A stretch of DNA of 64,000 bases. Origin: Bugula neritina. Taxonomy: Eukaryota; Animalia; Bryozoa. The position numbers and the translations under genes are program-made. Below, piece by piece: positions 7,082 through 48,045 of the stretch. The notes under the pieces were generated by a model. That model made no database searches, was not told the origin of the DNA, and saw only the letters and a program-made list of their open reading frames with translations. The stretch is taken from the NCBI GenBank assembly GCA_964035545.1, contig OZ037769.1:16336633-16400632 (forward strand), read 5' to 3'. Each line of letters starts with the position of its first letter. Within the stretch, counting starts at the first letter, position 1.

Positions 7082-7189
7082 ATTGAAGGGTTAAGCGGAG
7101 ATAACTTCTAACCTCATGTCTGAAAATACGCTAGGTCTTATTATAAGTAATATGATTGGATTGATACTGAAATATAGTAAAAGATCTAG

Positions 7190-18832: not shown

Positions 18833-21800
18833 ATAATTATATACTATTATATTATTATATATACTATTATATTATTATATATACTATTATATTATTATAT
18901 ATACTATTATATTATTATATATACTATTATATTATTATATATACTATTATATTATTATATATACTATTATATTATTATATATACTATTATATTATTATAT
19001 ATACTATTATATTATTATATATACTATTATATTATTATATATACTATTATATTATTATATATACTATTATATTATTATATATACTATTATACTATTATCT
19101 ATACTATTATATTATTATATATACTATTATATTATTATATATACTATTATACTATTATATATACTATTATATTATTATATATACTATTATATTATTATAT
19201 ATGCTATTATATTATTATATATACTATTATATTATTATATATACTATTATATTATTATATATACTATTATATTATTATATATACTATTATATTATTATAT
19301 ATACTATTATATTGTTATATATACTATTATATTATTATATATACTATTATATTATTATATATACTATTATATTATTATTATATATACTAATATATTATTA
19401 TATATACTATTATATTATTATATATACTATTATACTATTATATATACTATTATACTATTATCTATACTATTATATTATTATATATACTATTATACTATTA
19501 TATTATTATAAATACTATTATATTATTATATATACTATTATATTATTATATATACTATTATATTATTATATATACTATTATACTATTATATATACTATTA
19601 TACTATTATCTATACTATTATATTATTATATATACTATTATATTATTATATATACTATTATATTATTATATATACTATTATATTATTATATATACTATTA
19701 TATTATTATATATACTATTATATTATTATATATACTATTATACTATTATCTATACTATTATATTATTATCTATACTATTATATTATTATATATACTATTA
19801 TATTATTATATATACTATTATATTATTATAAATACTATTATATTATTATATATACTATTATATTATTATATATACTATTATATTATTATATATACTATTA
19901 TATTATTATATATACTATTATATTATTATATATACTATTATATTATTATATATACTATTATATTGTTATATATACTATTATATTATTATATATACTATTA
20001 TATTATTATATATACTATTATATTATTATTATATATACTAATATATTATTATATATACTATTATATTATTATATATACTATTATACTATTATATATACTA
20101 TTATACTATTATCTATACTATTATATTATTATATATACTATTATACTATTATATTATTATAAATACTATTATATTATTATATATACTATTATATTATTAT
20201 ATATACTATTATATTATTATATATACTATTATACTATTATATATACTATTATACTATTATCTATACTATTATATTATTATATATACTATTATACTATTAT
20301 ATTATTATAAATACTATTATATTATTATATATACTATTATATTATTATATATACTATTATATTATTATATATACTATTATATTATTATATATACTATTAT
20401 ATTATTATATATACTATTATATTATTATATATACTATTATATTATTATATATACTATTATATTATTATATATACTATTATACTATTATCTATACTATTAT
20501 ATTATTATATATACTATTATATTATTATATATACTATTATATTATTATATATACTATTATATTATTATATATACTATTATATTATTATATATACTATTAT
20601 ATTATTATATATACTATTATATTATTATATATACTATTATATTATTATATATACTATTACATTATTATATATACTATTACATTGTTATATCACTATTATA
20701 TTATTATATATACTATTATACTATTATCTATACTATTATATTATTATATATACTATTATATTATTATATATACTATTATATTATTATATATACTATTATA
20801 TTATTATATATACTATTATACTATTATCTATACTATTATATTATTATATATACTATTATATTATTATATATACTATTATATTATTATATATACTATTATA
20901 TTATTATATATACTATTATATTATTATATATACTATTATATTATTATATATACTATTATATTATTATATATACTATTATATTATTATATATACTATTATA
21001 TTATTATATATACTATTATATTATTATATATACTATTATATTATTATAATATACTATTATATTATTATATATACTATTATATTATTATATATACTATTAT
21101 ATTATTATATATACTATTATATTATTATATATACTATTATATTATTATATATACTATTATATTATTATAATATACTATTATATTATTATATATACTATTA
21201 TATTATTATCTATACTATTATATTATTATATATACTATTATACTATTATATATACTATTATATTATTATATATACTATTATATTATTATATATACTATTA
21301 TATTATTATATATACTATTATATTGTTATATATACTATTATATTATTATATATACTATTATATTATTATATATACTATTATATTATTATATATACTATTA
21401 TATTATTATATATACTATTATATTATTATAATATACTATTATATTATTATATATACTATTATATTATTATCTATACTATTATATTATTATATATACTATT
21501 ATATTATTATATATACTATTATATTATTATATATACTATTATATTATTATATATACTATTATATTATTATATATACTATTATATTATTATATATACTATT
21601 ATACTATTATCTATACTATTATATTATTATATATACTATTATACTATTATATTATTATAATATACTATTATATTATTATATATACTATTATATTATTATA
21701 TATACTATTATATTATTATATATACTATTATATTATTATATATACTATTATACTATTATATATACTATTATATTATTATATATACTATTATATTATTATC

Positions 21801-21890
21801 TATACTATTATATTATTATATATACTATTATATTATTATATATACTATTATATTATTATATATACTATTATATTATTATATGCTATTATA
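18833..21890. repeat. 3-kb 20-bp AT-rich satellite (ATACTATTATATTATTATAT)n
   Basis: About 150 near-perfect units; source of the Y/I/L-only ORFs. Confidence 0.98.
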
Positions 21891-22525: not shown

Positions 22526-24049
22526 ACATATTAATTGATAAGATTACAATATTCCTATATTCACTACATGCAGATGTTATTAGTTGTACTAGTAGTTGCA
22601 TATACAGCTTAGTAATAATATTCTAATCTATTAAATATTCCACATCTTGCCACGTGCTCTATATTTCTACACATAATATAATATTGCTGTATATATAATG
22701 TTGTTGGATGATACAATTAGCTAAGATGAAAAATTCTTATGTGCATTTTGTCAGTGTAGGTGTGAACTGCACATGCTCCATAGAGAAATAGAAATACTGA
22801 GTATAACATACTGAAAACCACTCTGCTGTACAGTTATAATGTTGCTGTTAATTTTGTTATTGATAAGCAGATTTGATGACACATAAATATATTATGATAT
22901 ATCCGTGTTCTTAGCATATTTCTAATTGTCAAAACTCTGGTATAAAATCACAATAATAAGCTAGCATTGGAAATTAAGGAATAAGTATATCATTGGAAGT
23001 TATAGCTAGATTGCCATGAGCAGCATAGCATTTTATTGCATGCAAAACAAAGTATATTTGTAGAGCTGTGTTCAACTCACATGCAGTTACTATTGTTTGA
23101 GGCCGTCCATTATTCCGGAATACAATAATGTTATTATGATTATTAGCTACGGCGTTGCATGCATTTTAGCTAATCGTTGTTGTTGCTAACGGGTTCAATA
23201 CATTCGGGGGTTCCCCTTTCAATAATATTATTGTGTTCCTACGCACCCATGTAAGTAGTTAGGTGTACTGCGCGTTCCCGTTTACGTCGGCTCGGTTTAC
23301 TTTTAGATTTATAGTATTAGTATTACAATTATTTTATTAATATTATCTTTACTGTATAGACTTAGTTTTTTTATTATTACAAAACTTAGTATATGCCTAT
23401 CACCAGTAACATTTTACCATTGTGTGACTGAATGGGTATGTAATACTAATAATAAATCGCGTTGAGTTTGTCTGTCAAAGTGAAACTGAAAGTGAATGTC
23501 AAACGCAATGCAACATTAGTAATTAACTATTATTAGTATAAATATTAATATCAACTGTATCAGTACGGATATCAGCATGAATTTGAGTGTCTAATTCTAT
23601 GACTCAAAGTATCACGATGCCTGTTACTATAACTATTACTATTAGTATTAATAGATCACGCAGTGATAATCTTATTTTGTCAATGAGCTCTGATCGTTTA
23701 TGCATTTTGTAGTATTGTAGTGAGGACGTAATACGCGCGTCCCCCAAACCCCTTCAGCCTATCCGAGTGCGTCACGTGATAACCCTCAGCGAGTAGTAGT
23801 TTATCAGTAGAGAGAGCGTACTAACTAAGTGAAGATGTAGTTTTAATCTGCGTACTTTTTGTATCTTGCCATATACTTAGTAGCGAATAAACTTTGTAAA
23901 CTCTTACTTAAATACTTTATTGATGTGGATAAATAGACTATAATTACAAGCTAGGAACCCACGCATAGTAATTACACAAATTACTACAGTGGTGGCAGCG
24001 GTGGGATCTCTAGCTACTATATAAGGACAATGAGAAGTATTAGAACATC

Positions 24050-25267
24050 ATGGACGAGAGTGTAACTTCAATGGAATAAGGTGAGCGAAACATTATTATA
24101 GGCCCTCTCGGAGCTGGAGAGGAGGTATATAGGAATACATTGGAAGTTCCCGTGTTCACGGGCCTCGAGGATGTCGAACAGTTTATCCAAGAGTTCCGTG
24201 AAGTTGCAGCCATTACAAGATGGCCGCCAAGAGTAACTCTTACGAAACTGCGGATGGCACTGACGGAAGAAGCCAAGCCGTACGGGTGGAAGCCTAGCGT
24301 AAACGGGATCATTGCTACACTACGGGCCCGTTTTGGCATGTCCGTTGCCGTCGCCAAGTCCAGGCTGCGAGGATTACTCCGCAAGACATGTACACCGCTT
24401 CCTGACCACGCCACTCTGGTGCAGAGACTGGCACGGACCGCGTATAGCGATCTGCCAGAAACACACAGACGGCACTATACATTCGAAGCTTTTGTGCAGT
24501 CCCTCAACTCTTTGGACTTCCACCACCAGTTACAAGCCAAGGGAGTAACCACGATCGAGGCTGCAATCCAAGAGAACAAGGCCTACGCTGGAGCCGAGCG
24601 ACTCTATAAGACGGAAGAGGCCACTCCCCGGACCTCTAGGGAACCAGACCATCCGGTCCGCATAGCTGCCGCGACCATTAAACCCCCCATAGAGATGGAG
24701 ATAGGCCGCTTGATGACTAAACTGGGACAATTGGTGGCGACGATAACATACAACCACTCGAGGAAAAGTAAGAGGCCGGCCACAAAGCCCCCCAGACCTA
24801 TGATGCAACGCAGGGAAAGCGGCAACCAGGGGCACCGCCGCCCAAGCGGCCCACGATTCAAACGGCAGCAGAAACCACAACCTCCCCGGAGACCTCCAGA
24901 GCTCCGCGGGCCCAAACCGAGAGGAAAACGGGGTGGATGTCGCCAGGAGCCCGTACGGGCCCAGCGGCACGCCCCCCGTCAATGGCAAACACCCCGCCGA
25001 AACCAGCCAACCGGGTCGACCACGAGACCCCTTCTCTCTTCCTCTCACCAACCGCTTCGGTCCGTTACCAGTAATGGAGCAGACCAGCGAGGCCCCTCAG
25101 GGCATCGGGGAGGATCAAAACACCCCCCCGCAAGGAAACTCTCACCGGCCCCGCAAACCGCGGAACAAACGGGCACAGCCCCGTTCGGCCGAGACCGAGC
25201 ACGCTGGGGGAGTACGGGTACAACCTCACGGAGGCAGCTACTTCTTGCCAGGGAAGGTGGCCGGTAA
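24050..25267 (+). CDS. gag: Gypsy Gag of element 1 (in-frame TAA at codon 10; zinc knuckle degenerate)
   Basis: ATG at 24050 is in frame with ORF 24140-25267; VPVFTG..EQFIQEF..W capsid-like region is homologous to the Gag of elements 2 and 3; TAA at 24077-79. Confidence 0.8.
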
Positions 25268-28200
25268 AGCTGTCACCTTCCTGTTAGACTCCGGGTGTAC
25301 CACTAATCTCCTCAGCCGTCGGGTCTTCGACACCCTCCCTCTCAAGGAGAGGGGAGCCTTAGCTCCCTGTACCGGGGAACCGGGCACCCTAGCTGACGGG
25401 TCACGGATTCCTTTCTACGGTATCATAGAATTGACTGGGCGCGTCCGCGACCAGGCCATTCAGGAAACCTTCGTCATTAGCCCACTTGAGGAAGATGCCA
25501 TACTGGGGATGCCGTTCTTGAAGAGACACGGGTGCCATATCGACTTTAGCAAGTCAGCCATGCTAATGGGCGGCAAAGAGCTCACCTGTGTCGACAAGTT
25601 CGGTCGTCCCCTAGCGGGAGGTGTGCAGGTAGTACGGAACTGTACTATACCCGGCCGCTCCCGGGCTACCGTTCACTGCAGAGTGAACAATAGCCAACTC
25701 TCGGGGTTAGGGGTTGTCGAAGGTGCGCACACTAGAATCCAACTCGCCAGCAGTCTTAACCGGCTGACTGACCGAGGAGAGATCTTGGTGCAGTGTGTCA
25801 ACCCCTTCTCCGAAGCGGTACAATTACCGTCAGGATCCATGCTGGGTCGCTTCCACTCCATCCAGGAGGAGGATATAGGGCCGTCGCTGGGAGCTGCGAC
25901 GGAAGGTCCCCAACAGAGCCCGTCAGTTAGGCGGGGGACCGTCCCACCACACGTCAAAGAGCTATACCAGGCAGCGTGTGACGGCTGCACGGGCAACGTG
26001 GAACGCCAGACCATGGCTCAGTTGCTACGTGATTATAGCGACGTGTTCAGCAGCGGGGACCATGACGTCGGCCTGACCACGGCCGTCCGGCATGAGATAC
26101 CGCTAGCTGCAGGGACTACCCCTATTCGACAGCCCACTAGGAGGCTGGGACCCGAGAAGGAAAAGGAGGTCAGCCAACAAGTCCGGGATCTTTTGGACCG
26201 CGGCCTCATCGAGCCAGCACATAGTGCGTGGAGTTCGCCGGTCGTTCTGGTCCGAAAGAAAGACGGCAGTTGGCGGTTCTGTGTGGATTATCGCAAGCTC
26301 AATAGCGTGACCATACAGGACGCCTACCCCTTACCCAGGATCGACAAATCTCTGGACGCCTTAGCCGGCAGCAAGTACTTCAGTACGCTAGACTTGTTGA
26401 GCGGCTATTGGCAGGTCCCCCTCAGCCCAGACGCCCAGGAGAAGGCGGCGTTCATCACGCGGGACGGCTTATGGAAGTGGAAGGTCCTCCCCTTCGGACT
26501 GACTTCTGCCCCCGCCACGTTCCAGCGGCTCATGGAACAGGTCCTCAGTGGACTCCACTGGAAGACACTGCTAGTATACCTCGACGACGTCATCGTGATC
26601 TCCCCAGACTTCCAGACACACGTCAGCCGTCTGCGGGAGGTCTTCGATCGACTCCGAGGCGCCAATCTGAAGCTCAAACCCTCCAAGTGCGCTCTCTTGC
26701 AGCCAGAGGTGAAGTACCTGGGGCACGTCGTCGGCCGACACGGTGTGGCGACGGATCCTGAAAAGGTACGAGCTATAGAAGATTGGGTAACCCCTCAGGA
26801 TTTGACCGGACTACGGGCTTTCCTGGGGCTGGTAGGGTATTACAGGCAATACATACCAGACTTAGCGGGGGTAGCGCAGCCATTAAACCGGCTCACCGCA
26901 AAGGGGGTGACCTGGCAGTGGACTCCCGTCGAACAGAGAGCGTTCGACTGCCTCAAGGGCCGCCTGCTGGAGGCCCCTATCCTGGCCTATCCAGACCCTG
27001 CCCTGGAGTACATCCTCGATACTGACGCCAGTGACCAAAATGTCGGCGCTGTGCTGTCCCAGGTGCAGGAGGGCCGCGAAGTAGTCGTGGCCTACTACAG
27101 TAAGTCTCTCTCGCCCACTGAACGAAATTACTGCACTACCCGAAAGGAACTGCTGGCAGTAATCAAGTCGGTGAAGCATTTCAGACCTTATCTATACGGC
27201 AGGAAGTTCCGCTTGCGGACCGACCACGCCTCCTTGATTTGGTTATGCAAGAGAGCAGAACCGTCCAGCCAAGTCGCCCGATGGCTCGAGGTCCTGGCCG
27301 AGTTCTCTTACCGGATCGAGCACCGACCCGGTAGGAAACACGGCAATGCTGATGGACTGAGCCGGCGACCGGACGAAGGGTGTAAACAGTGCCTCAACAT
27401 CGAGAAGAGGGATGGAGGTCCTCCAAAATCCGAGTTGAGAGCACTGAACCACTCTGAAACGGAGTATGACTGGAACCAGGGTCAACTCCTACAGAAGGCC
27501 GCTACGCCCCCGGAGGCTATCCAACGCCTCCGTGCCAATCCTGTCTTGGCTGATAACGTTAGGGAGCTACGAAGACTCCAGGAGGACCTCCCTGGAGTGG
27601 TAGCCGACGTATATCGTGCCAAAAAGGAGGGGCGACGACCCAGTGAAGAACAACTGCGACAGGGATGCACCGAGTTACGGTCGTACTGTCAACGTTGGGA
27701 CTCCCTGCGGATCGGGCCAGATGGTCTGCTGACCATCACAGTGGCCGCTCACAACAACCAGTACGGCAGGAAGAGGGTGATCTGCCCAGCCGCCATACGC
27801 CGTGAGTTAGTATGGGACACCCACAAACAGGCCCACGCCGGGGTAAGCAGGGTGCTCTCCAAGTTACAACTCCGGTGGTACTGGCCCGGCATGGAGCGTG
27901 AGGTGCGGCGTAGAGTCAAACAATGCGAAATCTGCCAGGCCAGCAAGCATGGCCGTCTCCCTGGCGAAGCGGGACGGCGTAGGCTATATGCTGGGAGGCC
28001 ATGGCAGGTGGTAGCTATCGACCTAGTCGGACCCATGCCCGTCACCCCCAGAGGAAACAGTTGGATCCTAGTATTAACCGACCACTTTACACGGTGGGCG
28101 GACGCCCTGGCTATTCCAGATGCGTCCGCCCCCACGGTGGCCAGGGTGCTAGACCAAAATGTATTCTGCTATCTTGGACTACCTGAGCAAATACATTCGG

Positions 28201-28694
28201 ACCAGAGGGCTCAATTCCAGTCCCAACTGTTGAGCGACCTCTGCCGCCTCTGGGGAGTAAACCAAAGCAGGACCACCCCGTACCATCCTCAGGGCAACGG
28301 GGTGGTGGAACGCAACAACCGCATGTTGGGCGATGCACTGCGCAGTCTGCTCCTCGGCCGGAGTCAGGAGGAGTGGGATACGGTACTGCCGCAAGTCATG
28401 CGGGCCTACCGTAGTACACCACACACCAGTACGGGGGAAACCCCTAACCTCCTGATGCTCGGTCGAGAGACGCGAGTGCCTGACCACCTCACATACCACA
28501 TCCCAGAGCAAGACTATACCATTCACGAATATGCCAGTAAATTGATAGAGGACGATATCCCCCCAAACTCCCTACCCGTGATGGTACTGCAGGTGGTGCC
28601 CCATCCCGAACCCTTCTCACGCCGGTGCTCACAAACAATTACTCAGTGTGACAATATTATAGTAACCTACCAGTATGCAGCTCTACCTCTATAG
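24933..28694 (+). CDS. pol: Gypsy Pol: aspartic protease, reverse transcriptase, RNase H, integrase (C-terminus apparently deleted)
   Basis: LLDSGC (PR); WRFCVDYRKLN, LPFGL, YLDD (RT); DTDAS..TDH (RH); HxxxH..CxxC, IDLVGP, HSDQ, VERNNR (IN); PR-RT-RH-IN order is Gypsy. Confidence 0.97.
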   Translation: MDVARSPYGPSGTPPVNGKHPAETSQPGRPRDPFSLPLTNRFGPLPVMEQTSEAPQGIGEDQNTPPQGNSHRPRKPRNKRAQPRSAETEHAGGVRVQPHGGSYFLPGKVAGKAVTFLLDSGCTTNLLSRRVFDTLPLKERGALAPCTGEPGTLADGSRIPFYGIIELTGRVRDQAIQETFVISPLEEDAILGMPFLKRHGCHIDFSKSAMLMGGKELTCVDKFGRPLAGGVQVVRNCTIPGRSRATVHCRVNNSQLSGLGVVEGAHTRIQLASSLNRLTDRGEILVQCVNPFSEAVQLPSGSMLGRFHSIQEEDIGPSLGAATEGPQQSPSVRRGTVPPHVKELYQAACDGCTGNVERQTMAQLLRDYSDVFSSGDHDVGLTTAVRHEIPLAAGTTPIRQPTRRLGPEKEKEVSQQVRDLLDRGLIEPAHSAWSSPVVLVRKKDGSWRFCVDYRKLNSVTIQDAYPLPRIDKSLDALAGSKYFSTLDLLSGYWQVPLSPDAQEKAAFITRDGLWKWKVLPFGLTSAPATFQRLMEQVLSGLHWKTLLVYLDDVIVISPDFQTHVSRLREVFDRLRGANLKLKPSKCALLQPEVKYLGHVVGRHGVATDPEKVRAIEDWVTPQDLTGLRAFLGLVGYYRQYIPDLAGVAQPLNRLTAKGVTWQWTPVEQRAFDCLKGRLLEAPILAYPDPALEYILDTDASDQNVGAVLSQVQEGREVVVAYYSKSLSPTERNYCTTRKELLAVIKSVKHFRPYLYGRKFRLRTDHASLIWLCKRAEPSSQVARWLEVLAEFSYRIEHRPGRKHGNADGLSRRPDEGCKQCLNIEKRDGGPPKSELRALNHSETEYDWNQGQLLQKAATPPEAIQRLRANPVLADNVRELRRLQEDLPGVVADVYRAKKEGRRPSEEQLRQGCTELRSYCQRWDSLRIGPDGLLTITVAAHNNQYGRKRVICPAAIRRELVWDTHKQAHAGVSRVLSKLQLRWYWPGMEREVRRRVKQCEICQASKHGRLPGEAGRRRLYAGRPWQVVAIDLVGPMPVTPRGNSWILVLTDHFTRWADALAIPDASAPTVARVLDQNVFCYLGLPEQIHSDQRAQFQSQLLSDLCRLWGVNQSRTTPYHPQGNGVVERNNRMLGDALRSLLLGRSQEEWDTVLPQVMRAYRSTPHTSTGETPNLLMLGRETRVPDHLTYHIPEQDYTIHEYASKLIEDDIPPNSLPVMVLQVVPHPEPFSRRCSQTITQCDNIIVTYQYAALPL

Positions 28695-29275
28695 ACTATT
28701 CCCTTACAAGTGCCTCCCGCCGGTGTCATTGTGTATTCACTGTTATATTTTTTTTATATATATACATGTTTTTCTTATTACTGTACATAGCCATGTTCTT
28801 TCTTTTATGTGCCACACGCTCTCTCAGTTTTTTTTAGTTTTATAACGTTTTATGTCTGAATTAATTGTATCTGTGTTATCAGAAAGTAGGGCTTTCTGCT
28901 GGGGGGGGCGGTGTAGTGAGGACGTAATACGCGCGTCCCCCAAACCCCTTCAGCCTATCCGAGTGCGTCACGTGATAACCCTCAGCGAGTAGTAGTTTAT
29001 CAGTAGAGAGAGCGTACTAACTAAGTGAAGATGTAGTTTTAATATGCGTACTTTTTGTATCTTGCCATATACTTAGTAGCGAATAAACTTTGTAAACTCT
29101 TACTTAAATACTTTATTGATGTGGATAAATAGACTATAATTACAAGCTAGGAACCCACGCATAGTAATTACACAAATTACTACAGTATCATGAATGAAGT
29201 TGGGGATGGACAGTATTCTAGTTGGTTTTTGTGCTTCCGTTTTGTTTTTGATGTTTGTGTTTTCAGGGTATTCCG

Positions 29276-32200
29276 ATGGCTGAAGCTACAGTTGAGCAGG
29301 TAGAATGTGGATTCTGTGTAACCAGACTAGAAGATCTAGAAGATTCCAGATCTCTACCTTGTTCTCATGTACACTGTTTAAGATGTCTGCTGGGGAACTT
29401 TGAGGTCAATAAGATAGTGAGATGTCCCTTCTGCAGGTATCACTTTACCCTGAGATATTCTCAGTTTGAGTTCTGTTTACTAATCATTGTGAGTTCTACT
29501 ATATTGTGTGTTATATTCTCTACTGAGAGAGATGTATTGTATATACTGTGATGAGTTAGTAACTACTTTACTGTATTGTGTAGGGAAGTATTTGATGTTG
29601 ACATTCACTCTCTTCCTACCTCCAACACCAGAGAAGGTCCATCTCTATACTGTGATAGTTGTACTAGGAAAGGAGTGAATAATCAGCCAGCTGTTATTTA
29701 CTGTAAAACTTGTTCTACTAAACTGTGTGCTAAACACAGAGACGTGAGTTAACAGTCTTAGTGTTTAGACATGGCAGTTTTATTATTTTTAACAATCTTA
29801 AACATTTTCATTAATACAAAGTATCTATGCCAAAGCCCAAGTTTGCCATTTGAACGTTCTTCTTTTATGTCTACTATAACTTCTGATTTGTTTTGAGTTT
29901 TTTTGCAAAGTTTTAGTGAACCGTTGGATAAGTGATAGATCCAGTGTTGATTTGTTATTTACAAGTCACATGACGATGTGCATGGAGGCCACCCTATGAT
30001 CACTATGACTGACTACAGAGCACAGGCTAGTAAACTAGAACCTAGACTGTGTACTAAACACACAGAGTTACCATACAGTATGGGATGTAGGAGATGCCTT
30101 GATCTGTTCTGTACAGAGTGTGTTGGTGGTTTAAAAGGATGTGCAGATGGTAAGCATAGTAGTTTAAAATTTGAAAGTATGTTTTTTTGTTGTAAAAAAG
30201 CACAATTTTGCTATATAAATAAAGGTGCCTGGATAAAAAAAGTGTCAGTTTATACAAGGTTGTATAAAATTCTCTTTAATGAATAGCAAATAATTATGTT
30301 ACAATAGTTACTCATGACTGATATTTGAGTATATTATAATGCCATGCATGTTATTCAGTGTTATTCAGAATTGATGATATTAATACGTAAATCCAGTTTA
30401 AATTTACACACTCCTATTGGGGGGGCGCACCACGCCAACTCAGTATAAATAACATGACTTCCAGTGGTATTCGGCTGGGAACCTTCTCTAGTCAACTTCA
30501 GAGTTAATTAAACAACTTGACTTCGAATAGACTCCTGCTGCACCACTCTGCTTTACCTCAATGAACATGTCACAAAAGAATTTGCTACTTAAGAGAATAT
30601 GTTACAAGATTGTCATGAATAACTTTCTACAGTCTCATTGTTAATTATCTGCTTGAAGATCAATTTGTAAATTGTCACTTTCTTCAGTCTGTCTAACTTC
30701 AGGTTTATTAAATGGCATTGAGTGAGAACAAGTGATGTACATCTGTTTAGTTGTGTTTTCAAGCTGTCTTGTTTTCACTCATGTATTATTTTTATATATC
30801 AGTGAATTCACGTGTTTATTGAGGGGAAAGTTTGTAACTGCAGTGCTGGTATAAATTACAATAATCAATAAATATTTGCTTTCATAGGTTCCCCTCATAA
30901 CCTGATGTCACTGAAAGAGTTGGTAACTGAACTCTCCAAAGAGGTGGATGGGATGAGATCAGAAATACTGGACAGAGAAGATAAACTCTCAGATTTACTG
31001 AAACACATGACTGGAGTATTGTGTGATTATGATAGTGAGACTAGAGATAGGATAGAGACACTCCACAGAACACGTGATGAACAGGTCATATTATATACTC
31101 TGTACTGCTATATGTTAGTTGTATATCACTGTAGTCACTAGTTTGTAAGTCAAGATATAAATAAACTAGTAGAATCTATTTATAGATTGAGAGTATTCAA
31201 CAGAAGTATAAGAAGTTGGAAGAAGAGTTGATAGAATTGAGAAGAAATACTAAATTAGAGTTGGAGAGATTCACTGAACAGGATGTTGGAGTGAAGTTGT
31301 CTGATCTGAATAGACATAGACTTCAGATTGAGGCCAGACATAAACACAATCACCAGGTCTGTGGTTTACTAGTTCCATGATATTATAGTATTTAGTTCTG
31401 TTTGATTTTGATGAAGTGATATTTTTATTCAGTTTCAAGAAAGTGTATATCTTTAGGTGGACATTATAAACAGACATGGGGAGACAATCAACCAGATTAA
31501 GGAGTTGTTATCAGGGAACCTTCCAAATTTGAAACTATCCAATATGGCTACTCTAGAGGTCAAAGGTTAGACTTTTAATATAACTAAATAGTGATTTTTT
31601 AAAACTTTTTCAGCTTAGATGCTCCTTTTTAATAAGTAGTATAGTAAGTAGTGTGGCTAAATACTTTATTACTTTAATTGGCTAAGAAATGTGGGAGTGA
31701 CTGGAATGTGGGAGCGACTTAAATATAAAAGTATGTACTGTCAAACACATTTGTTTACAAGACTTACTATAAATCATGTGTCAGTTAAGTACTCTTTATT
31801 CGATGCACAGGATTCTCTACTGTCTGACATGTGACGATTCCAATTTTGTTGTTTTAATCGCTGTTTTTTCACTAACGATTTAAAGGCAAAAAGGGTGATT
31901 TGCTTTATATTTGAATGCATTTCTTCGGCTTTAAATATTTTAGATAACACTGTAATACTGATCTCAGTCTATTATCAAAACAAAACCTGTTTTGTCTATA
32001 GTGTTAAGTAAACTTGCATTCTCGTAATGTCTGACTATGAATACTGCTTTACTTTAACTAGCTAGACAATGTAGAAACTACCTAAATACATGTTTATTCA
32101 CAGAAAACACATTTATTTGCGAGGCTAGCTGTAAATCATTTTCCAGTTAAGTATTACCAGTTCCTACTGGATATACAAATTTCGCATTGCTTGACATTTG

Positions 32201-34213
32201 ACGATTTGCATTTTGTATTTTTCACAAAACTGTTTACGAGCCAGTTTATATTTGAATGGATGTTTCCACTTTGAATAGTTGAGAGGTTATATCAATAATC
32301 AGTTATATCACATTTATTATCAAATGCATGCTAACACTGGAAGATTATATAAAGTATCACATAATCATATACTATGACTGTTTGAGGTGTGCTGACACCT
32401 GCTAGCACCTGTTTCTTCCAGATCAAAATTCTGTAATCCACAAAAGTGTTTTCTACAATCTGGAAATGTAAAGTTGTCCGATGAGCAGATCGCAGAAGAA
32501 TTTGAATAATAATTTATTTCCCAGCAGCGTACTTCTCTGGTAATTTTCTGATTTCAAAGTTGCTTTGTCAGAATTGTGTGAATTATAAAACTGTGAAGAA
32601 ATTTGTTTAGTGAACAGGTTTGCTCATCATATCATTAATTTGTTCACTATCTTCGTTTTGCTATTTTTGCTACTAAATTATAAGCTTTTGTTAGACAGGA
32701 ATTCGGAGTTGTATTACCAACTATTATTATCGGCCTATGAAAAAAAGTTGTATTTTCATGTAAAAATGTAGTTTTCAGAGTCAGTTTGAATAGGGTTGAT
32801 ACTAATTGTGAATGTAAGTTATATTAAACATGAAAAACAATGATATATTAAATTCAATAGCTAGGATTTCCTGATGAAAACCGTTTTTATTGTAGGTGAG
32901 AGGAGAGAAGTTGAAGTTGAAGTTGTCACCTCAAAAAAAGTGTCAATAGACTTGGAACATGAACTGACAACTCCTGATACTCTACCCACACAGTTGTCTC
33001 TCCTGCATACAGTTCCTGTGTCTGGTCACTGTACTTCAGTCTGTAGTTATCAGGGAAACACTTATGTTGGGGTAGTGGGTGGTAGAGTAGATATAATAGA
33101 TGAGAATAACCAACACAGTAGGGAGTTTGTAGGAGTAGGTAACTCTGTACTCAGTGTAGCTGTATACAAGGACAGACTGTATACTTTAGTATATGGTATT
33201 CCTTACACAGTAACAGTACATGATCTGACAGGGAAACTCATCACCAACTGGGCTCACACTGATCACAGATCTGGGTTTAGTAAACTAGCAGTTGTTAGTG
33301 ACCGGGTTGTTATACCAGACAGACAGAATAAGAGACTAACAGTCTACTCTCTCACAGGGGAGATAATTAGACACATTCAGTGTCCTCTACTCAGTCGTAA
33401 CTGGGTATCAATGTGTGCCGTAGACAATCACTCTATTGTTGTGTCTGATACTCAAACTTCTAAAGTGTTTAAAGTGAATATTCCAAGTGGAGAAGTTGAA
33501 TGGACATCACAAGATGTACCCAACCCTGGAGGTGCAGCATACCACCAAGGGAGAGTGTTTGTTACTAACTTCAGTAATACCACCAGAGTCTGGATACTGG
33601 ATGTGAATACAGGTTAGATTATATACTTACTAATCTATATTATATACTTACTAATCTACATTATATACTTACTAATCTGTATTATATACTTACTAATCTA
33701 CATTATATACTTACTAATCTACATTATATACTTACTAATCTACATTATATACTTACTAATCTACATTATATACTTACTAATCTACATTATATACTTACTA
33801 ATCTACATTATATACTTACTAATCTACACTATATACTTACTAATCTACATTATATACTTACTGATCTATATTACATACTTACTAATCTATATTGTATACT
33901 TGCTAATCTATGTTATATACTTACTAATCTATGTTATATACTTACTAATCTATGTTATATACTTACTAATCTATATTATATACTTACTAATCTACATTAT
34001 ATACTTACTAATCTACATTATATACTTACTAATCTACATTATATACTTACTAATCTACATTATATATTCATATATTCAGGTAAACTGCTCACAGAGATCT
34101 CAGATGCTGCTATAGGGACTGACCCTCTTGTATTTGATCTGCACGTGACAGGAAATACTCTGATAGTCCCGAGATACAATGAAAGTAAAGTACTGTTCTA
34201 CCAAATAGACTGA
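29276..34213 (+). CDS. TRIM-NHL-like E3 ligase (RING, two B-boxes, coiled coil, beta-propeller), copy 2, intact, 610 aa
   Basis: Eight GT-AG coding exons 29276-29436, 29584-29743, 29966-30149, 30888-31084, 31186-31356, 31457-31565, 32896-33612, 34080-34213 total 1833 nt in one open frame. RING CGFC..LPCSHVHCLRC..CPFC; B-box CDSC..CKTC..LCAKH; B-box CTKH..CRRC..FCTEC; helical exons; NHL-like blades. Confidence 0.9.
33613..34079 (+). repeat. 21-bp minisatellite forming the last intron of TRIM copy 2
   Basis: About 21 tatatacttactaatctacat units between GT and AG. Confidence 0.95.
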
Positions 34214-34570: not shown

Positions 34571-34850
34571 ATAGAGTTAATATTGTATGGTAAAGTTAGT
34601 ATTGTATGGTAGAGTTAGTATTGTATGGTAGAGTTAGTATTGTATGGTAGAGTTAGTATTGTGTGGTAGAGTTAGTATTGTATGGTAGAGTTAGTATTGT
34701 ATGGTAGAGTTAGTATTGTATGGTAGAGTTAGTATTGTGTGGTAGAGTTAGTATTGTATGGTAGAGTTAGTATTGTATGGTAGAGTTAGTATTGTATGGT
34801 ATAGTTAGTATTGTATAGTAGAGTTAGTATTGTATGGTAGAGTTAGTATT
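34571..34850. repeat. 20-bp minisatellite (GTAGAGTTAGTATTGTATG-type) downstream of TRIM copy 2
   Basis: Reverse complement of the 12181-13300 family. Confidence 0.95.
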
Positions 34851-36007
34851 CTCACTGGCCTAGAAGTCTTGAAAGTTGTCTCCTCGTACATCATGTTGTA
34901 TACAAGAGATGATAACTCATTATCTGTCATTAAAAACTAAATAATATTCAACTAAATCACAATAAATTATTGAAGTATCATTTATATGTACAGACAACTC
35001 CCAAGTAGTAGTGCATTTCCATGTTTCCAGTGTGTTCAACACAAAATTGTGAGGACATCATGTCTTTAGCTAATTCCTTCTGTGTATGTAAAGCACGTAG
35101 TTTTCTTACGTCCACCCTTTATAATACCTGTACACTATTGTAAGATCTCAAGCTAAGAGTTTGAAACATGTAGCAGTATAATAAACACAATGGGATCTAC
35201 TTATTAGTATGTAACAACACTATACTGAATATATCACTGATCTACTACTACTAATTACACCCATCAGTATTGTATATCTCACACATATATTTACAAATAC
35301 CACTAAATATATCCTCAGAAGCTCTCTCTATATTATACTCTGTATGTGTTACAAGTATACAGTAAACACTGCCACATGAACTAATACTGTTGTGAGCTTT
35401 AGCACACAATTATCAAGCGTGGATTGCCGGCGTATTTAGTTTCAATTTAACTAGCAACTACTAACAGAGGTTGCGTACGATAACCTTTATTTAATTCGAT
35501 AAACATAATTATAACAGTATGTCAAAACCACAATACATCAATCAATTACAACACGTCTTACTACTACGAGCCTCGGCTCTCAACAACATGGTTTCTGCTA
35601 GCTAACCCGCGAACAGTCACTTGACCGGAACCTTGCCTTCCGGTCCTTCTGATTGGATAGTAGAACATAGTTACAAGTATTCCCATACAGGAGGAGACAA
35701 ATGCATTATTATGCTACGTAATCCCATTACACCGCCCCCTCCAGCAGAAAGCCATACTTTCTGATAAAAACAGAAATAGTATAATAATGCAAAAATAACA
35801 CAAGTAAAGAAAACCCACAAAGAGAAAGAAAAGAAACATCAAATGTATGACATATATAAACACATAGTAAGATAACGGAGGGCCAGTGTACAACTGGCCA
35901 GCTATGAAGAGAGAGTCCTGGATCATAGGTCATTAGCAGTCGAGCATTTACATGATCACAATGTAGTACCCCGGGAACATGCGGGTGGAATTGTCAACTG
36001 TCAGCTC

Positions 36008-37028
36008 CTACTTTCGTAGGGATTCGATCCGGTGTCGTGCCTGCCGTGCACGTAGCCTACGCTTTAGGCGTCCTACTGAGCCTTTCAATTCACTAAGGCC
36101 CATTGTGGTACTGAGTAGATCGGGAGCCAACTGGGTGAGTTCATCCTGTAACCGTGAGAGTCTTTCTTCGACGGTTGCTAGTCGGGTAGGCCTGGTTGGG
36201 GTTGGCGTCGCTTCTTCTGGAGAGTCTGATGCTTCCATAGGGGTATCGTCTGGTCGCGGTATGATCGCGGCGACCGTTTTCACCATAGGGGACTTCTGAC
36301 GGGCGGCTGTTAATAATGCATAAAATCCGGAGGATAATGCGGCCCAGGTTAAAGCCTTCTTAACCATTGGTTTGACCGCTTCTAGGTATTGGTTGTAATT
36401 GTCCGCGTCTACTACATAGCCCTCGCCTGCGAAACAGTCCATCATGTGAGCCAGGACAGGGTATGGATACACGTCGTGAAATCCACACGGACAAAACCGT
36501 AGCAGGAAGTGTGCATTCACATGCAGCCGTAGTCCTTGGTGTGAGGGAAGCTCTTCGTAACACACGTGGCAGGTGTGTTGTGACCTACTCGGTCCCCAGG
36601 CTTCTTCAATTTGCCGCTCCGTTCGTCGCGACACCCATCTGTGTCTTCGACGCAGCACCGCGGGCAGTCCGTTATCCATTTCCGGTCCGTCATCCAAGAG
36701 AGAGTGTAGATCCTGTGACCCAGAGTTGGTCGATCGAGTGTGATCTGCAAGAGTATAACAGTGTAAGGGTACACTGAGTACAACCGGCGGAAACAGCCTG
36801 GTGGGTACTTAACTCAATTAGACACTCGTGAGACTCAGTTAATGAATAGTTGATCGAAAACACACACTGCTGTAACAGACTGTTAAGTCTTAGAGTCAAT
36901 GTGAATTCTCACCACTAGAAATCATTACCGAGTCTCCAGCTTACTTTATTATAGTTAAGCTGATTAATACAGTTTAGTTCTCGTACCAAAAACATAACTA
37001 ACTCACCCCTCGATTCTTGGCAAGCCAT
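36008..37028 (-). CDS. Spliced accessory gene of element 2: C2H2/C2HC zinc-finger plus coiled-coil protein, about 252 aa
   Basis: join(37007-37028, 36008-36744): ATG GCT TGC CAA GAA TCG AGG G|gtgagt..ttgcag|AT CAC is in frame with ORF 36008-36697. CHVC-x12-HVNAH, CPC..H..C and C-terminal heptads with a basic tail. ATG context, intron phase and protein are conserved in element 3. Confidence 0.72.
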
Positions 37029-37057
37029 TGTGAATGAGAGTGGTATGTTTATGAATT

Positions 37058-39421
37058 CTACGTACGTCTACTCAAAGCTGTATTAATGTGGTGAAAGAGC
37101 GAGCAGCGTGGTTGTGAAACGTGACTATGACTTATTACCTCCGGCGTATGAATCTTATTTGAATTTCCGCCGAGGCAAAAGTTGATATTTTCGTGGTGCT
37201 CACAACTCCCACGCTCTGCTCCCTTCCCCTCACGGCGTCTCGTAGGACGTTTGACCGCGCCCTTAACGGAACGTGGTAAGTCCTTGCGATACGCGGGGCC
37301 TGGCTTGGGACACCGTTTCCAAGGTGTCGTCACTAACCAAGGCGGTTTACGCACCCGTGGACGGTCACGTCGCTTGGGTGGTGCCTTCAGCCAGTTTGTG
37401 ACAAATGGAGCTTTCCTAGCATCTCCGTTCGGAGCCTGGGGAAGTGTTATCTCCAGCCATGGTGGTTTACGCACCCGTGGACGGTCACGTCTCACAGGTG
37501 GTGCTTCCAGCCAATTTGTGACAAATGGAGCTTTCCCAGTACCTCCGCACGGAGCCCCTCCCTTGGGGGGTTTTTGCACTTCCAGGTCGGTTCCTGACCT
37601 AGAAAGTGGCGGTGGCGGCTTGCACGCTAACGGCGGTGAGCGCACTTCCCTGAACGGGTGTGGCTTTTCCTGCCTCGCCACTGCTTTGGGTTGCATACTA
37701 GGCGGTTTGTCGACCAGGTTAGCAGTCTCCGTCTGCCCGGGTCTTTCTGCACTTTGCCTTCGCCGCCCTACTTCCTCAGTAGGGGGGCCGTGCTCACTGA
37801 CCCGGCAGACTCCGCACTGCCCAACGCTGTGTCGTACATCACGCTCCATGTGAGGCCAATACCACCAGAGTTGTAGTTCGGTGAACACCTGTTGGGCTCC
37901 CCCATGAGCCTGTTGGTGTACCTCTTCTATCAACTCTTGGCGGATGGCGGCAGGACAGAGGGTCCTCTCCTGGTCTGGCTGGTGGTGGTTATCGGCCAAG
38001 GATATGGTCAGTAGACCATCCGGCCCGATCCGCAGTGCGTTCCAACGTCGGCAGTACAGCTGCCACTCAGGGCAGCCCTGCTTCCGTTGTCTGTCACTGG
38101 GTCGTCGCCCTTCCCGTTTCATTCGATAGACGTCGGCTACCACCCCCGGAATAATTTCCTGGAGGTGTCCTAGCTCCTTGACGCCATCGGTTGAGACAGG
38201 TTCGGCGTGGGGGTCCTGTGCCACTGCTGGGGGCATGTCAGGATCCCCAAGGTGAGGTGTAGCTTCGGTTTTGTGTAGTGACGTGGCCGTCTCTGGGCGC
38301 TGTTCGTCATCCACGCAACCGTCTGATGTTGTCCCACGGGTCTCCTGGCTGTGGGGTGAGGCAGTCCTTCGCCCGAAGGGCGGCTTCTCTAGAGGACTTT
38401 TCATCGCGGTTTCCCGCGATGGCCTGCTGTCGTCTTCTTGAACAGAAGGAGTACAGCTTAGTGGAGAGGTGGGTGGTAGGCTCACTGGTTCAGAGGGGGA
38501 GTGGAGGCATGGCACCGAGGTCTTTCCTTTCCGTGTCAGCTGGTTAGAGCTGCGGACAGGTGGGACTTTCGGGTGCGCGCTCTCTACAGCTCCCGGCCTG
38601 GAGGTACGGCCACCGTCTACCTTGCGGTGGACGGTGCCCCGGGAGTGGCCAGGCATAGTACAAGTACGTACTACCGGCTCTTCTCCCGTTAGGGGATGGC
38701 CAAACTTATCGACACAGGCGAGCTCCCTGCCGCCCATAATCATCGCAGATTTACCAAAATCAATGCGGCATCCGTGTCGTTGTAAGAATGGCATCCCAAG
38801 GATGGCGTCCTCCTGGAGTTGTCCTACAATGAACCTTTTCTGGATGGTCTGGTTACAGACGCTCCCAGGGAGTTCAATGATACCGTAGAAGGGGATGCAC
38901 GACCCGTCTGCCAGGGTGCCATGATCGCCTTCATACGGTTCCAACCTGCTTCTGATCTGAGCGCTGAGTGTGTCGAAGAATCGACGACCCAGAAGGTTGG
39001 TGGTGCAGCCCGTGTCCAGCAGATACCTGGCAGGTTTGCCGGCTATCTGTCCTGGCAGGAACAGGCTGCTCTCGTGGGGATGTAGTGGTATCTTGGGTGA
39101 CCTCATCTCCCTCGCCTTGGCGGAGGGGTTAGGTTCTTGACGACGATTCGGGACCAGCTGTCGAGGGGTTGGTGCCGCGCCTTGCTGCGTTTGGGCACCT
39201 TTCCTCGCAAACTCTGCGGTCCGTCGTTTGTCAAACCTGTTGCGGGGTAGCATTGAGAACACCGGCGGCGAGCGGCTTGTACAGCTTGCTTGCCGTCCTG
39301 GTGGCCGTTCCGCGAGGTCCCGGCCGGGTGTCCGGCGTGGCGGACGCCACTGTGTCCTCCCTTGGGGTTTTAACGGCGGCCCGCCGGATGTGGGAGCATC
39401 CGCGGGCCGTCGTAGTTTAAC
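37058..39421 (-). CDS. pol: Internally deleted Pol of element 2 (protease, integrase zinc-finger remnant, tail), -1 frame relative to gag
   Basis: YLLDTGCTTNLL protease; HQQAH..CGVC; no YxDD, RNase H or DDE region; the frame stays open for about 790 codons. Confidence 0.85.
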   Translation of the reverse strand, partial: VKLRRPADAPTSGGPPLKPQGRTQWRPPRRTPGRDLAERPPGRQASCTSRSPPVFSMLPRNRFDKRRTAEFARKGAQTQQGAAPTPRQLVPNRRQEPNPSAKAREMRSPKIPLHPHESSLFLPGQIAGKPARYLLDTGCTTNLLGRRFFDTLSAQIRSRLEPYEGDHGTLADGSCIPFYGIIELPGSVCNQTIQKRFIVGQLQEDAILGMPFLQRHGCRIDFGKSAMIMGGRELACVDKFGHPLTGEEPVVRTCTMPGHSRGTVHRKVDGGRTSRPGAVESAHPKVPPVRSSNQLTRKGKTSVPCLHSPSEPVSLPPTSPLSCTPSVQEDDSRPSRETAMKSPLEKPPFGRRTASPHSQETRGTTSDGCVDDEQRPETATSLHKTEATPHLGDPDMPPAVAQDPHAEPVSTDGVKELGHLQEIIPGVVADVYRMKREGRRPSDRQRKQGCPEWQLYCRRWNALRIGPDGLLTISLADNHHQPDQERTLCPAAIRQELIEEVHQQAHGGAQQVFTELQLWWYWPHMERDVRHSVGQCGVCRVSEHGPPTEEVGRRRQSAERPGQTETANLVDKPPSMQPKAVARQEKPHPFREVRSPPLACKPPPPLSRSGTDLEVQKPPKGGAPCGGTGKAPFVTNWLEAPPVRRDRPRVRKPPWLEITLPQAPNGDARKAPFVTNWLKAPPKRRDRPRVRKPPWLVTTPWKRCPKPGPAYRKDLPRSVKGAVKRPTRRREGKGAERGSCEHHENINFCLGGNSNKIHTPEVISHSHVSQPRCSLFHHINTALSRRT

Positions 39422-40302
39422 CCTGGTTGAAGTCGGGGACAATGCTTCTGGAAGTGTCCTGGTCTTCCGCACCCCCAGCAGGATGGTTGTCCTCTACTAG
39501 GCGACTGCACCGGTGGCCCGTCAAGCTCACTGGTGATGCCTAGCTGGCTTTCCAGGGCGGAGACTAGTTCGGCTAGCATGTCGGTCATTCGTGCGACCTG
39601 TGATGCCACCGTCATCTGCGTCACCTTGCCCACCGCTGGAGTTTCCGCATGAGAAGCGGTAGGAGCAGCGGAGGGCTCCATGTCAACCTGGCGAGAAATC
39701 ACACGGCTCCGGTGCAGCTGGCTGGCCAGGAGGTAAGCCTCCCCTTCCGCCAGCGCACCTTCGACCGTGGTGACTCCCCTCGCCAAGAGTTGGTGATGGA
39801 GTCCCAAGTCGTTGATGGACTGCACGAAGGCATCATAGGTATACCTCTCACGGTTTACTGGCGGCAGATCGCGGAATGCAATCTGCGCCAGTCTCATAAC
39901 CGTGGTAGCGTGCTCTTGTAGCGGCGTGTGAGGATCACGCCGTAGTCTTTGCAGACGGGCCCGCGCATCTACAGCGGAGATACCAAAACGGGCCCGCAGG
40001 GAAGCAAAGATGCCGTCAATGTCGGATCCCACTCCGTACGGCTTGGCTTTGTCTGACAGCGCCATCTTGAGCTTGAGCAATGCTATTCTAGGCGGCCATT
40101 GTGCAACTTCCATTACATCTTGGAATTCCTGAACGAATTGCTCCACCGGCTCCTCACCTGAGAAGGTGGGTACCTTCAGCCGGTACTTCTCTTCGTAACA
40201 TTCCCTATGCACTCGCACTTCTGGTTCTATAGGTATAGCAATGTTATCTTCCTCACCTTCATTCCTCCGAATGGGTAGCTCTGTGCCTCTGTCTGTTGCC
40301 AT
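39370..40302 (-). CDS. gag: Gag of element 2 with CCHC zinc knuckle
   Basis: ATG at 40302 just after the PBS; KVPTFSGEEPVEQF capsid-like region; CWGCGRPGHFQKHC knuckle. Confidence 0.9.
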   Translation of the reverse strand: MATDRGTELPIRRNEGEEDNIAIPIEPEVRVHRECYEEKYRLKVPTFSGEEPVEQFVQEFQDVMEVAQWPPRIALLKLKMALSDKAKPYGVGSDIDGIFASLRARFGISAVDARARLQRLRRDPHTPLQEHATTVMRLAQIAFRDLPPVNRERYTYDAFVQSINDLGLHHQLLARGVTTVEGALAEGEAYLLASQLHRSRVISRQVDMEPSAAPTASHAETPAVGKVTQMTVASQVARMTDMLAELVSALESQLGITSELDGPPVQSPSRGQPSCWGCGRPGHFQKHCPRLQPGLNYDGPRMLPHPAGRR

Positions 40303-42514
40303 TTTGAAATACGCGAAATCCCACCGCTGCCACCACTGTTGTGAGCTTTGGCACACAATTATCAAGCGTGGATTGCCGGCGTATTTAGTTTCAATTTAAC
40401 TAGCAACTACTAACAGAGGTTGCGTACGATAACCTTTATTTAATTCGATAAACATAATTATAACAGTATGTCAAAACCACAATACATCAATCAATTACAA
40501 CACGTCTTACTACTACGAGCCGGCTCTCAACAACATGGTTTCTGCTAGCTAACCCGCGAACAGTCACTTGACCGGAACCTTGCCTTCCGGTCCTTCTGAT
40601 TGGATAGTAGAACATAGTTACAAGTATTCCCATACAGGAGGAGACAAATGCATTATTATGCTACGTAATCCCATTACAATACTCAGTTGTAATTAACTAT
40701 CTAATTCTATACTGACTCAGTGTGATTAATATAGTTGGTGTTACCTCACAATACTTAGGTTGTCTTCTCCTTGTTTCATTATTGTCTATCTCTTGTTGAA
40801 TGTGTAAATACTCAAGGATTTCTAATAAAGAGACAATATTGATGGTTTATTCTGGTGTCTAACACTAAAAATTAAAGAATTATGTAACACAGCCTCTGGT
40901 ACTACCTAAAATGTTGGGGTGGGGAAACACTACTCTATAGCTGAACTGTAGCAGTGAGGAACACAACACTAAATTATAGAAAAGTTTCAATAACATCACC
41001 TCATGTCTGTTATTCAAGAGTTATACTTAGATTTCCAGCTACTCTGTTTACATCTGAAATAATGAATTATTATTATTATACATACAGTAATATTCTATTC
41101 TTCCACATATAACGGCCTATTTATAATATTTGTTATCATTTTCCACCCCTTTTCAACTTATAATTGATAAGATTACACTATTCCTATATACACTACATGC
41201 AGATGTTATTAGTAAGACTAGTAGTTGTATACAGCTTAGTAATAATATTCTAATCTATTAAATATTCTACATCTTGCCATGTGCTCTATATTTCTACACA
41301 TAATATAATATTGCTGTATATATAATGTTGTTGGATGATACAATTAGCTAAGATGAAAAATTCTTATGTGCATTTTGTCAGTGTATGTGTGAACTGCACA
41401 TGCTCCATGGAGAAATAGAAATACTGAGTATAACATACTGAAAACCACTCTGCTGTACAGTTATAATGTTGCTGTTAATTTGGTTATTGATAGGCAGATT
41501 TGAGGACACATAAATATATTATGATATATCCTTATTCTTAGCATATTACTGTTTATGTCTGTGAGTATTCCAATGTTTTGTAATTGTTATTGTAATTGTC
41601 TGTGGATAAACATATATATTGAGATAAGGAAGTTTGGATTAGTTTGGAGTGTTAGGTAATCTTTAATCGGTCTCAAACCATAAGCCAGAGAATGTACTAC
41701 AAACACACAATAAAGTAATATTAGCATAAGTAAGGTTTAGACACAAAAGATTGTATAACCGAGTACATGTAATTACTATAACGTATGATACAGAGTATAA
41801 ACATAATACAAATTAATATAATAACATTGTAACAATAGACTGATGGTGGGGAGGCCCAAACATGTGTCGAACAAAAATTTAAATAAAATTTATAAAATAA
41901 ATTTTGTAATTTATAATTGATAACTGAATTGAATAACTGAATTAAATAATTAAATCGGATTAAATTGAACTTCTGGTTTAGTCAGATTGGTCAGTTAAAA
42001 TGAAGCGAAGTTACTTATTAGCTTTTAGTTTCAAAATTTCTATATAATTTGCAGTTAATTAATTAAAAATAAGAGTTATCTTTGCTCGACAAATATTATG
42101 GTTTGGAAATCATGTAGTAATGTGTATATGCGGTTCTATGTATATTGTGTAATGGTTAGCACTCAGGCTAATATTCTGTGAGACAAATTTGGGATTTGCT
42201 CCCCCAGAAGAATTGAAATTATAATATATGTGCGTGTTGTATAATATATATATATATATATATCTATTTAATGATAATGACAAAGCAAGCAAATCACAAT
42301 AGCAAAAATATTACAAGAATGAACCAAAACAAAGATTGTCCTAGCGACCCTTTGAAATCCTGCTGTGTTATACTAGCAACAGAAATAGCTAAGTTTGACA
42401 ATTGGGATAGAAAGGCTTATACGAAATTGAATACACAATGAGAATTGTAATTAGAACATCAATATTAAAATATATGTTTTAACATAAACTCATACAGCCT
42501 TGAAATAAATTCTT

Positions 42515-46944: not shown

Positions 46945-48045
46945 GCTAGATTGCCTTTAGCAGCATAACATTTTATTGCATTCAAAACAAAGTATATTTG
47001 TAAAGCTCTGTTCAACTCACATACAGTTATCATTGTTTGAGGCCGTCCATTATTCCGGAATATAATGATATTATTATGATTGTTAGTTACGGCGTTGCAT
47101 GCATTTTAGCTTATTGCTAACGAGTTCAATGCATTCGGTTTGCCGGCGAGGGGAATCCCCCTTTCAATAATATTATGTTCCTGCGCACCCTTGTAAGTAG
47201 TTAGGTGTACTGCGCATTCCCGTTTACATTAGCTCTGTTTACTTTTAGATTTATAGTATTAGTATTACTATTATTATATTAATATTATCTTTACTGTATA
47301 GACTTAGTTTTTTATTATTACAAAACTTAGTATATTCCTATCACCAGTAACATTTTACCATTGTATGACTGAATGGGTATGTAATACTAATAGTAATAAT
47401 AAATCGCTTTGAGTTTGTTTGTTAAACTTAAAGTGAAACTGAAAATGAATCATTGAATGTCAAACGCAATGCAAAATTAGTAATTAGCTACTATTAGTAT
47501 AAATATTAATATCAACTGTATCAGTATGGATATCAGCATGAATTTGAGTATCTAATTCTATGACTCTCAAAGTACCACTATTACTATTAGTATTAATAGA
47601 TCACGCAGTGATAATCTTCTTTTGTCAATGAGCTCTAATCGTTTATGCGTTTTGTAGTATTGTAATGGGACACGCAATCTAATAATATGGGTTGTTTCCC
47701 CTAATCACTATGTGGAATACTTATCGCAATCATACGTCGTCCAATGAGGAGAACCGGAAGGCTAGCTTCCTGTAATGTGACTTGTTCCCGGGTTTATTAA
47801 CATTTACCTAGTTAGTCGTGTGCGTACTCTTGTGCTGTAAACATGTATTAGTAGTTGACTGATGTTAGCACGTATTATTGTAATGTTTGTCTCATTGTTC
47901 ATTGTACTAAATATAAGTAATTACTCGCCAGCTACCCTAGTAATTGCTAGTACTTGCCAATACTGAATACCTCGGGAAATCCACACGCTAACTCTTGTGT
48001 AACCCACAACAGTGGTGGCAGCGGTGGGATTGTGCTTATATCAGA

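Follow-up and report, generated by a model that had tools for sequence, protein, structure and literature searches.

The TRIM-NHL proteins (Brat, Mei-P26, NHL-2, TRIM2/3, TRIM32 and TRIM71/LIN-41) combine a RING, two B-boxes and a coiled coil with a six-bladed NHL-fold propeller. According to the accessible part of PMC4015489, these regulators number 3-5 per genome in flies, worms and mammals, and in Brat it is the b-c and d-a loops that make up the top of the propeller, where RNA is bound. TRIM proteins have been classified into subfamilies, subfamily C among them (PMC3503706, in excerpt). TRIM56, a RING TRIM with an NHL-like C-terminus, is described in the available text of PMC6623546 as binding viral RNA and restricting viruses. 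As far as the accessible passages of PMC3137616 go, TRIM5alpha and the fish finTRIM, btr and hltr genes belong to multigene clusters in which the loops that bind the ligand are hypervariable and positively selected and in which paralogues recombine. In the literature searched, subscription papers lying outside it, we found no article on an invertebrate TRIM-NHL family that is both expanded and positively selected; the available text of an article on oyster immune genes (PMC4346834) holds no passage on TRIM genes.

Here we describe four copies of one TRIM gene in intron-rich animal DNA, within a window of 64,000 nt (the whole stretch of DNA that was analyzed). The family resembles the TRIM-NHL proteins in its RING/B-box/B-box/coiled-coil order followed by a six-bladed NHL-fold propeller (Z 25-29), and its variation lies on what in Brat is the RNA-binding face. 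However, identity is only 11-17%, the Pfam NHL score lies below its cut-off, the short linker leaves no room for a filamin domain, paralogue clusters number in the hundreds where TRIM-NHL genes number 3-5, and the top face varies in sequence, length and charge. TRIM56, judging from the part of the source at hand, is an earlier example of an NHL-type TRIM with antiviral activity, although it is a single vertebrate gene; the window family is likened to it by architecture, and an antiviral role could be proposed by analogy. The closest system in its mode of working is that of TRIM5alpha and finTRIM, also a multigene TRIM cluster with hypervariable loops; there the loops belong to a B30.2 (PRY-SPRY) beta-sandwich, whereas no such domain was found at the C-terminus of the window TRIM, which models as a beta-propeller. 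The same architecture is present in "TRIM2-like" or uncharacterised proteins of Watersipora subatra and in B-box+NHL clusters of molluscs and echinoderms, all of which carry automatic annotations only.

Organisation of the TRIM cluster

The window contains one intact gene and three damaged or partial copies:

29276-34213, forward strand: copy 2, intact, eight coding exons with an open 610-aa frame
51985-55705, forward strand: copy 3, all eight coding exons
13667-15185, reverse strand: copy 1, last two exons only, frames open
62887-63020, reverse strand: copy 4, last exon, the remainder lying past the window end

The propeller exon of copy 3 is frameshifted by a 2-nt deletion after ~54902, which could reflect a pseudogene or an assembly error. 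Copy 1 lacks the 5' exons, its 5' part being cut by a copy of a DNA transposon, and copies 3 and 4 are arranged tail to tail. Of the three copies with a full propeller, two are probably dead. The cluster is flanked at 653-7090 (reverse strand) by exons of a potassium channel gene of the voltage-gated type, presumably Shaw/Kv3-like.

Copy 2 encodes, in this order, a RING, two B-boxes, a coiled coil, a linker and a six-bladed NHL-fold propeller, distributed over the following features (all on the forward strand):

29276-29436: exon with start codon and C3HC4 RING finger (Pfam; joint to the next exon seen in RNA contigs)
29584-29743: exon, B-box 1 (Pfam)
29966-30149: exon, B-box 2 (no other exon diverges as much from copy 3)
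30888-31084: exon, first half of the coiled coil (exon comparison, RNA contigs)
31186-31356: 171-nt coiled-coil exon (exon 5), one difference from copy 3
31457-31565: linker exon, acceptor at 31457 set by RNA contigs
32896-33612: propeller exon with linker, closing strand 6D, blades 1-4 and strands A-C of blade 5
33003-33029, 33075-33083, 33135-33146, 33192-33203, 33258-33287: top-face loops of the propeller exon, approximate (AlphaFold2)
33321-33332, 33381-33404, 33450-33461, 33510-33524, 33570-33587: top-face loops of the propeller exon, continued, approximate (AlphaFold2)
33618-34066: 21-bp minisatellite in the last intron, found in all four copies at differing lengths
34080-34213: last exon with strand 5D, strands A-C of blade 6 and the stop codon
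34100-34129, 34175-34186: top loops of the last exon, approximate (homology classes, then matched to the model of relative P0001)

The RING passes the Pfam cut-offs (zf-C3HC4 PF00097, 23.9 bits against 21; zf-RING_2, 27.9 against 27.3) and its C3HC4 pattern is complete. Both B-box hits (PF22586, E 1e-5; PF00643, E 0.0015) stay under the curated cut-offs; two Cys/His B-box motifs are visible, in order, after the RING. The stretch of the relative P0001 that matches exons 4-5 of copy 2 is predicted by AlphaFold2 to be one 98-residue helix. A premature stop in exon 6 of the first gene model was discarded, the RNA contigs splicing 31356 to 31457, 24 nt further; this joint (31354-31455, GT..AG) occurs in all four RNA-type runs and also in run X10, and the TAG at 31454-31456 is the end of an intron, not a stop codon. 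A 5' UTR exon hinted at by one RNA loose end had no match in the window at up to two mismatches.

Family size and transcripts

At 50% identity, 405 clusters match the propeller; 20 of the hits were looked up and 13 of them were named, all from W. subatra and spread over five long contigs, their propellers being ~34-42% identical to that of the window. A bryozoan origin of the window is therefore likely. A separate homology search returned 22 relatives. In the Atlas, one Watersipora protein (P0050) resembles mollusc and echinoderm B-box+NHL clusters, with scores of 0.91-0.93. These data support a large and expanding invertebrate TRIM family.

In runs X9, X14 and X15, whose RNA type is an inferred label, exons are covered, introns are almost bare and GT-AG joints are present. 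Each of these runs contains several differing propeller pieces, while the exon 5 pieces listed show no differences; X14 has the four-residue insertion of relative P0004 in the blade-1 loop. The RNA contigs carry the majority alleles of the family and not the private ones of copy 2. Spliced transcripts of the TRIM family that vary in the loops exist.

Predicted fold and assignment of the top face

AlphaFold2 modelled the propeller exon with 20 propeller strands (mean pLDDT 84.8), and for P0001, a fuller relative with 53% identity, it predicted 24 strands in six blades with an N-terminal closing strand. The best 16 structural matches of the P0001 model were NHL domains of TRIM-NHL proteins, Mei-P26 being the first (Z 28.7, rmsd 2.2, 245 aligned residues); with the model of the window propeller exon itself, Brat appeared at ranks 2-3. 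Pfam NHL (PF01436) scores 16.5 bits on the window propeller against a cut-off of 20, and precomputed PF01436 annotation exists for 6 of the 22 relatives. A TRIM with a six-bladed NHL-fold propeller is supported by these models. The predicted top face was assigned by topology, from the model strands and the Brat b-c/d-a loop rule; the loop classes derive from the predicted structure and are independent of the observed variation.

Variation is concentrated in the top-face loops

The loop motifs quoted in the earlier note for copies 1-3, and for the last exon of copies 1-4, were all found in place. For the protein comparison we used ten close sequences, namely copies 1 and 2 plus eight of the 22 search relatives with at least 79% identity (79-86%; paralogues or alleles), copy 3 being excluded because of its frameshift. 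In this set the top loops have a mean entropy of 0.83, as opposed to 0.15 for bottom loops and 0.27 for strands (Mann-Whitney, top vs bottom p 4e-5, top vs strands p 7e-6), so that the clustering of changes claimed by the note exceeds chance when classes are defined by structure. The 24 sites with H>=1.3 are divided into 17 in top loops, five in strands, two in the linker and none in bottom loops, placing the variable sites on the predicted top face of the AlphaFold2 model, as had been anticipated; this entropy is reached at 17 of 57 top positions versus none of 32 bottom positions. Each of the ten top loops of the propeller exon has a site with H>=1.16, and the bottom-loop maximum is at most 0.97. 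Seven of the eight amino-acid-variable codons of the last exon fall within its two top loops. Codon indels, also part of the claim, start 13 times in top loops and seven times in strands, with no start in a bottom loop, when the close sequences are compared with copy 2.

The top loops are also more variable across the deep family (entropy 3.12 vs 2.40 in bottom loops, 146 sequences), hence low constraint accounts for part of the pattern. The close Watersipora pair P0040 and P0169 shows the reverse trend, differing at 1/57 positions in top loops, 7/31 in bottom loops and 12/118 in strands; more distant Watersipora pairs display a top excess (e.g. 27/55 top vs 9/30 bottom), which low constraint would also predict.

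Tests for selection on the top loops

Two scans of metagenome contigs revealed no related loci, and the codon tests were consequently limited to the three window propellers (copies 1-3), two of which belong to probably broken genes. The earlier note had described the changes as mostly non-synonymous; taken by itself this says little, as dN/dS over the whole propeller is 0.8-1.5 among copies 1-3 and never significantly above 1. Using our own codon models (star tree, F3x4), M2a was preferred over M1a for copies 1-3 (LRT 19.7, p 5e-5), with an omega2 of 5.6 on 23% of sites, and also when multi-base changes were allowed (LRT 8.8, p 0.012). With site classes fixed by the structure, omega was 2.86 in top loops and 0.57 in the rest (p 7e-5), or 2.52 and 0.51 with multi-base changes (p 0.002). 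When the top loops were given their own synonymous rate, which is 1.6-2.2 times higher, their omega dropped to 1.6-1.7 and was not significant (p 0.20-0.24). Four of the six likelihood tests are thus significant and the two with a loop-specific synonymous rate are not. In all three pairs of copies, which are non-independent, top-loop pN (0.135-0.20) exceeds both the divergence of the non-coding flanks (0.05-0.11, p 0.003-0.014) and the pS outside the top loops (0.04-0.06, p<=0.0024). Taken as a whole, we consider positive selection on the top loops quite likely.

The alternative that survives best is relaxed constraint combined with patchwork gene conversion, in which the tolerant loops of a decaying, redundant family would accumulate multi-base mutations or short pieces of older paralogues, with no positive selection. 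The higher synonymous rate of the loops, with the loss of significance that follows from it, and the breakage of two of three full-propeller copies are what such a process would leave, as is a patchy ancestry of segments, introns of copies 2 and 3 differing by 1.4-19.7% and 43% of the informative site pairs being tree-incompatible. However, the bottom loops, although exposed as well, hardly vary, top-loop pN amounts to ~2-3 times the divergence of the flanks, M2a remains significant even with multi-base changes, and inside the exon a PHI-like test, run on 38 informative protein columns, gave no sign of recombination that depends on distance (p 0.37-0.87). We regard this account as unlikely, while giving it real weight.

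Possible function of the variable face

We lean, with moderate confidence, towards an expanded TRIM family in which diversifying selection likely acts on the top-face loops, so that each copy would bind a different and likely parasite-derived target. This reading builds on the gene structure, the variation and indels of the top loops, the amino-acid excess, the patchy ancestry and the loop-variant transcripts, all of them observed. A RING/B-box/coiled-coil module is joined to a predicted NHL-fold propeller, and each copy would direct its own target, possibly a fast-evolving foreign protein or RNA, to ubiquitin-dependent disposal; E3 activity and dimerisation are taken here from general TRIM biology. 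Recent duplication or gene conversion may have made the coil and introns 4-5 uniform, and transposon-associated rearrangement may drive the birth and death of copies. A putative role in intracellular defence is our best guess. The net charge of the top loops ranges from -3 to +4 by residue count and gives no hint as to the ligand.

Diversifying selection could also be real and the ligand endogenous, the paralogues subfunctionalising in allorecognition, with germline partners, or with host RNAs as in Brat/LIN-41. Bryozoans are colonial, which fits allorecognition, and the nearest structures are RNA-binding TRIM-NHL domains, with RNA on the top face in the accessible part of PMC4015489. The same text, on the other hand, counts 3-5 TRIM-NHL regulators per genome against the hundreds of clusters here; moreover, the loops vary in length and their positive charge is not constant. 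Against a surface allorecognition receptor in particular, neither signal peptide nor membrane segment was seen by eye in the 610 residues of copy 2. An endogenous ligand appears to us rather improbable.

A broader scenario, which we put forward as speculation and hold to be similarly improbable, is that a lophotrochozoan TRIM-NHL RNA-regulator scaffold gave rise to a germline repertoire of variable intracellular receptors, their coils kept identical by conversion so that paralogues with unlike binding faces can pair, and their targets including capsids or RNAs, whether from viruses or from Ty3/gypsy elements like those inserted twice at one site of this cluster. To our knowledge, few variable receptors have been described in invertebrate intracellular immunity. 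If true, the family would be a propeller analogue of TRIM5, and an NHL propeller face diversified like the SPRY loops of TRIM5 and finTRIM would represent a convergent route in an immunologically little-studied phylum. The loop positions named above are supplied for swap and binding tests.

Ancestry of the coiled coil and other segments

Exon 5 of copies 2 and 3 (31186-31356 vs 53510-53680) differs at 1 of 171 bases (0.6%), the single-base difference that the earlier note had reported. The note had also implied that selection holds the coil still beside a variable propeller, and in this respect our results disagree: introns 4 and 5 are about as invariant (2.0% and 1.4% divergence), and the most divergent exon between these copies is not the propeller exon (8.1%) but that of B-box 2 (16.8%, dS ~0.4, dN/dS 0.3). 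Introns 2, 3 and 6 diverge by 16-20%, with large gaps in addition. Since introns 4-5 are equally invariant and the coil of P0001 is no better conserved than its propeller core, we treat the coil as a recently shared or converted segment.

Strong purifying selection on the coil, for instance to keep paralogues able to heterodimerise, would be the other way to explain its invariance. In comparisons with more distant paralogues, seven of the nine best-supported listed differences in exon 5 lie at third codon positions, and by this sequence criterion the coil is under ordinary purifying selection. Nonetheless, introns 4 and 5 match the invariance of the exon; in runs X1 and X2 intron 4 and exon 5 are spanned by a single deep contig (~300 nt) that shows two differences, other, shallower contigs being 15-18% different in exon 5; and relative to P0001 the coil exons of copy 2 are 44-46% identical, less than the propeller strands (61%). 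Strong selection of this kind therefore seems improbable, a little more so than an endogenous ligand. The simplest reading is that conversion or duplication gave the coil and introns 4-5 a recent common ancestry, with ordinary purifying selection acting in addition, so that an invariant domain beside a variable one in such clusters can stem from gene conversion and not from constraint. As a separate observation, the B-box 2 exon (29966-30149 and 52593-52776) has a dS of ~0.4, against ~0.03 for exons 1, 2, 4, 5 and 6 together; it is an old segment within a homogenised gene.

Mobile elements and repeats

The weakest alternative, that the copies are haplotypes or mis-joined reads, would draw on minisatellites and inverted repeats that are hard to assemble and on a copy 3 frameshift that is possibly an error, but is very hard to reconcile with unalignable introns, different LTR insertions with target duplications, eight more variants from other records and RNA contigs that carry loop variants.

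The mobile elements located were:

23716-29184, forward strand: E1, Ty3/gypsy-type LTR retrotransposon, GTAT duplication, ending 91 nt upstream of the copy 2 ATG
47661-51893, forward strand: E3, LTR element, no RT hit, GTAT duplication, 91 nt upstream of the copy 3 ATG
35388-40678, reverse strand: E2, LTR element, no RT hit, GTAT duplication, downstream of copy 2
15334-17092, no strand assigned: 1.76-kb DNA transposon with terminal inverted repeats (repeat comparison)
45185-46944 and 57849-59609: further copies of the 1.76-kb transposon, the former with an intact 8-bp duplication

The earlier note spoke of retroelements inserting into the family; they do so in its non-coding DNA, two of them 91 nt upstream of start codons and one downstream, and no mobile element was found inside the TRIM exons of the window. 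E1 and E3 have unrelated LTRs, yet they occupy the same homologous nucleotide in two paralogues, probably inside a 5' UTR intron. As 554 GTAT sites are present in 39.6 kb of unmasked sequence, such sharing would be a coincidence of ~1% or less; together with the GTAT in all three elements it suggests a sequence-specific target and a hot spot. One primer-binding site, which we take to be tRNA-Leu-like, is common to E1, E2 and E3. An extra 3' ORF in E2 (36008-36808, reverse strand) and E3 (50390-50977, forward strand) has zinc-finger-like Cys/His motifs as well as a short coiled segment, and gave no significant Pfam hit.

The copies of the 1.76-kb transposon, presumably hAT-like, are 98-99% identical. 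Two of the three have mismatched flanks, one at the break of copy 1 and the other between copies 3 and 4, and the halves of these flanks come together at an empty site near 9944, which suggests that this transposon rearranged the TRIM cluster.

An inverted repeat of 290 bp with 100% identity (57559-57848 and 61534-61823) also lies between copies 3 and 4. Each TRIM copy is followed by a 19-bp minisatellite (12181-13295, 34572-34850, 56054-57558 and 61824-62513), and a separate 3-kb array with a 20-bp unit spans 18838-21881. Finally, a dispersed repeat of ~200 bp occurs five times (5980-6188, 7185-7385, 10452-10657, 52930-53123 and 60116-60341), the copy at 52930-53123 being located within intron 3 of copy 3.
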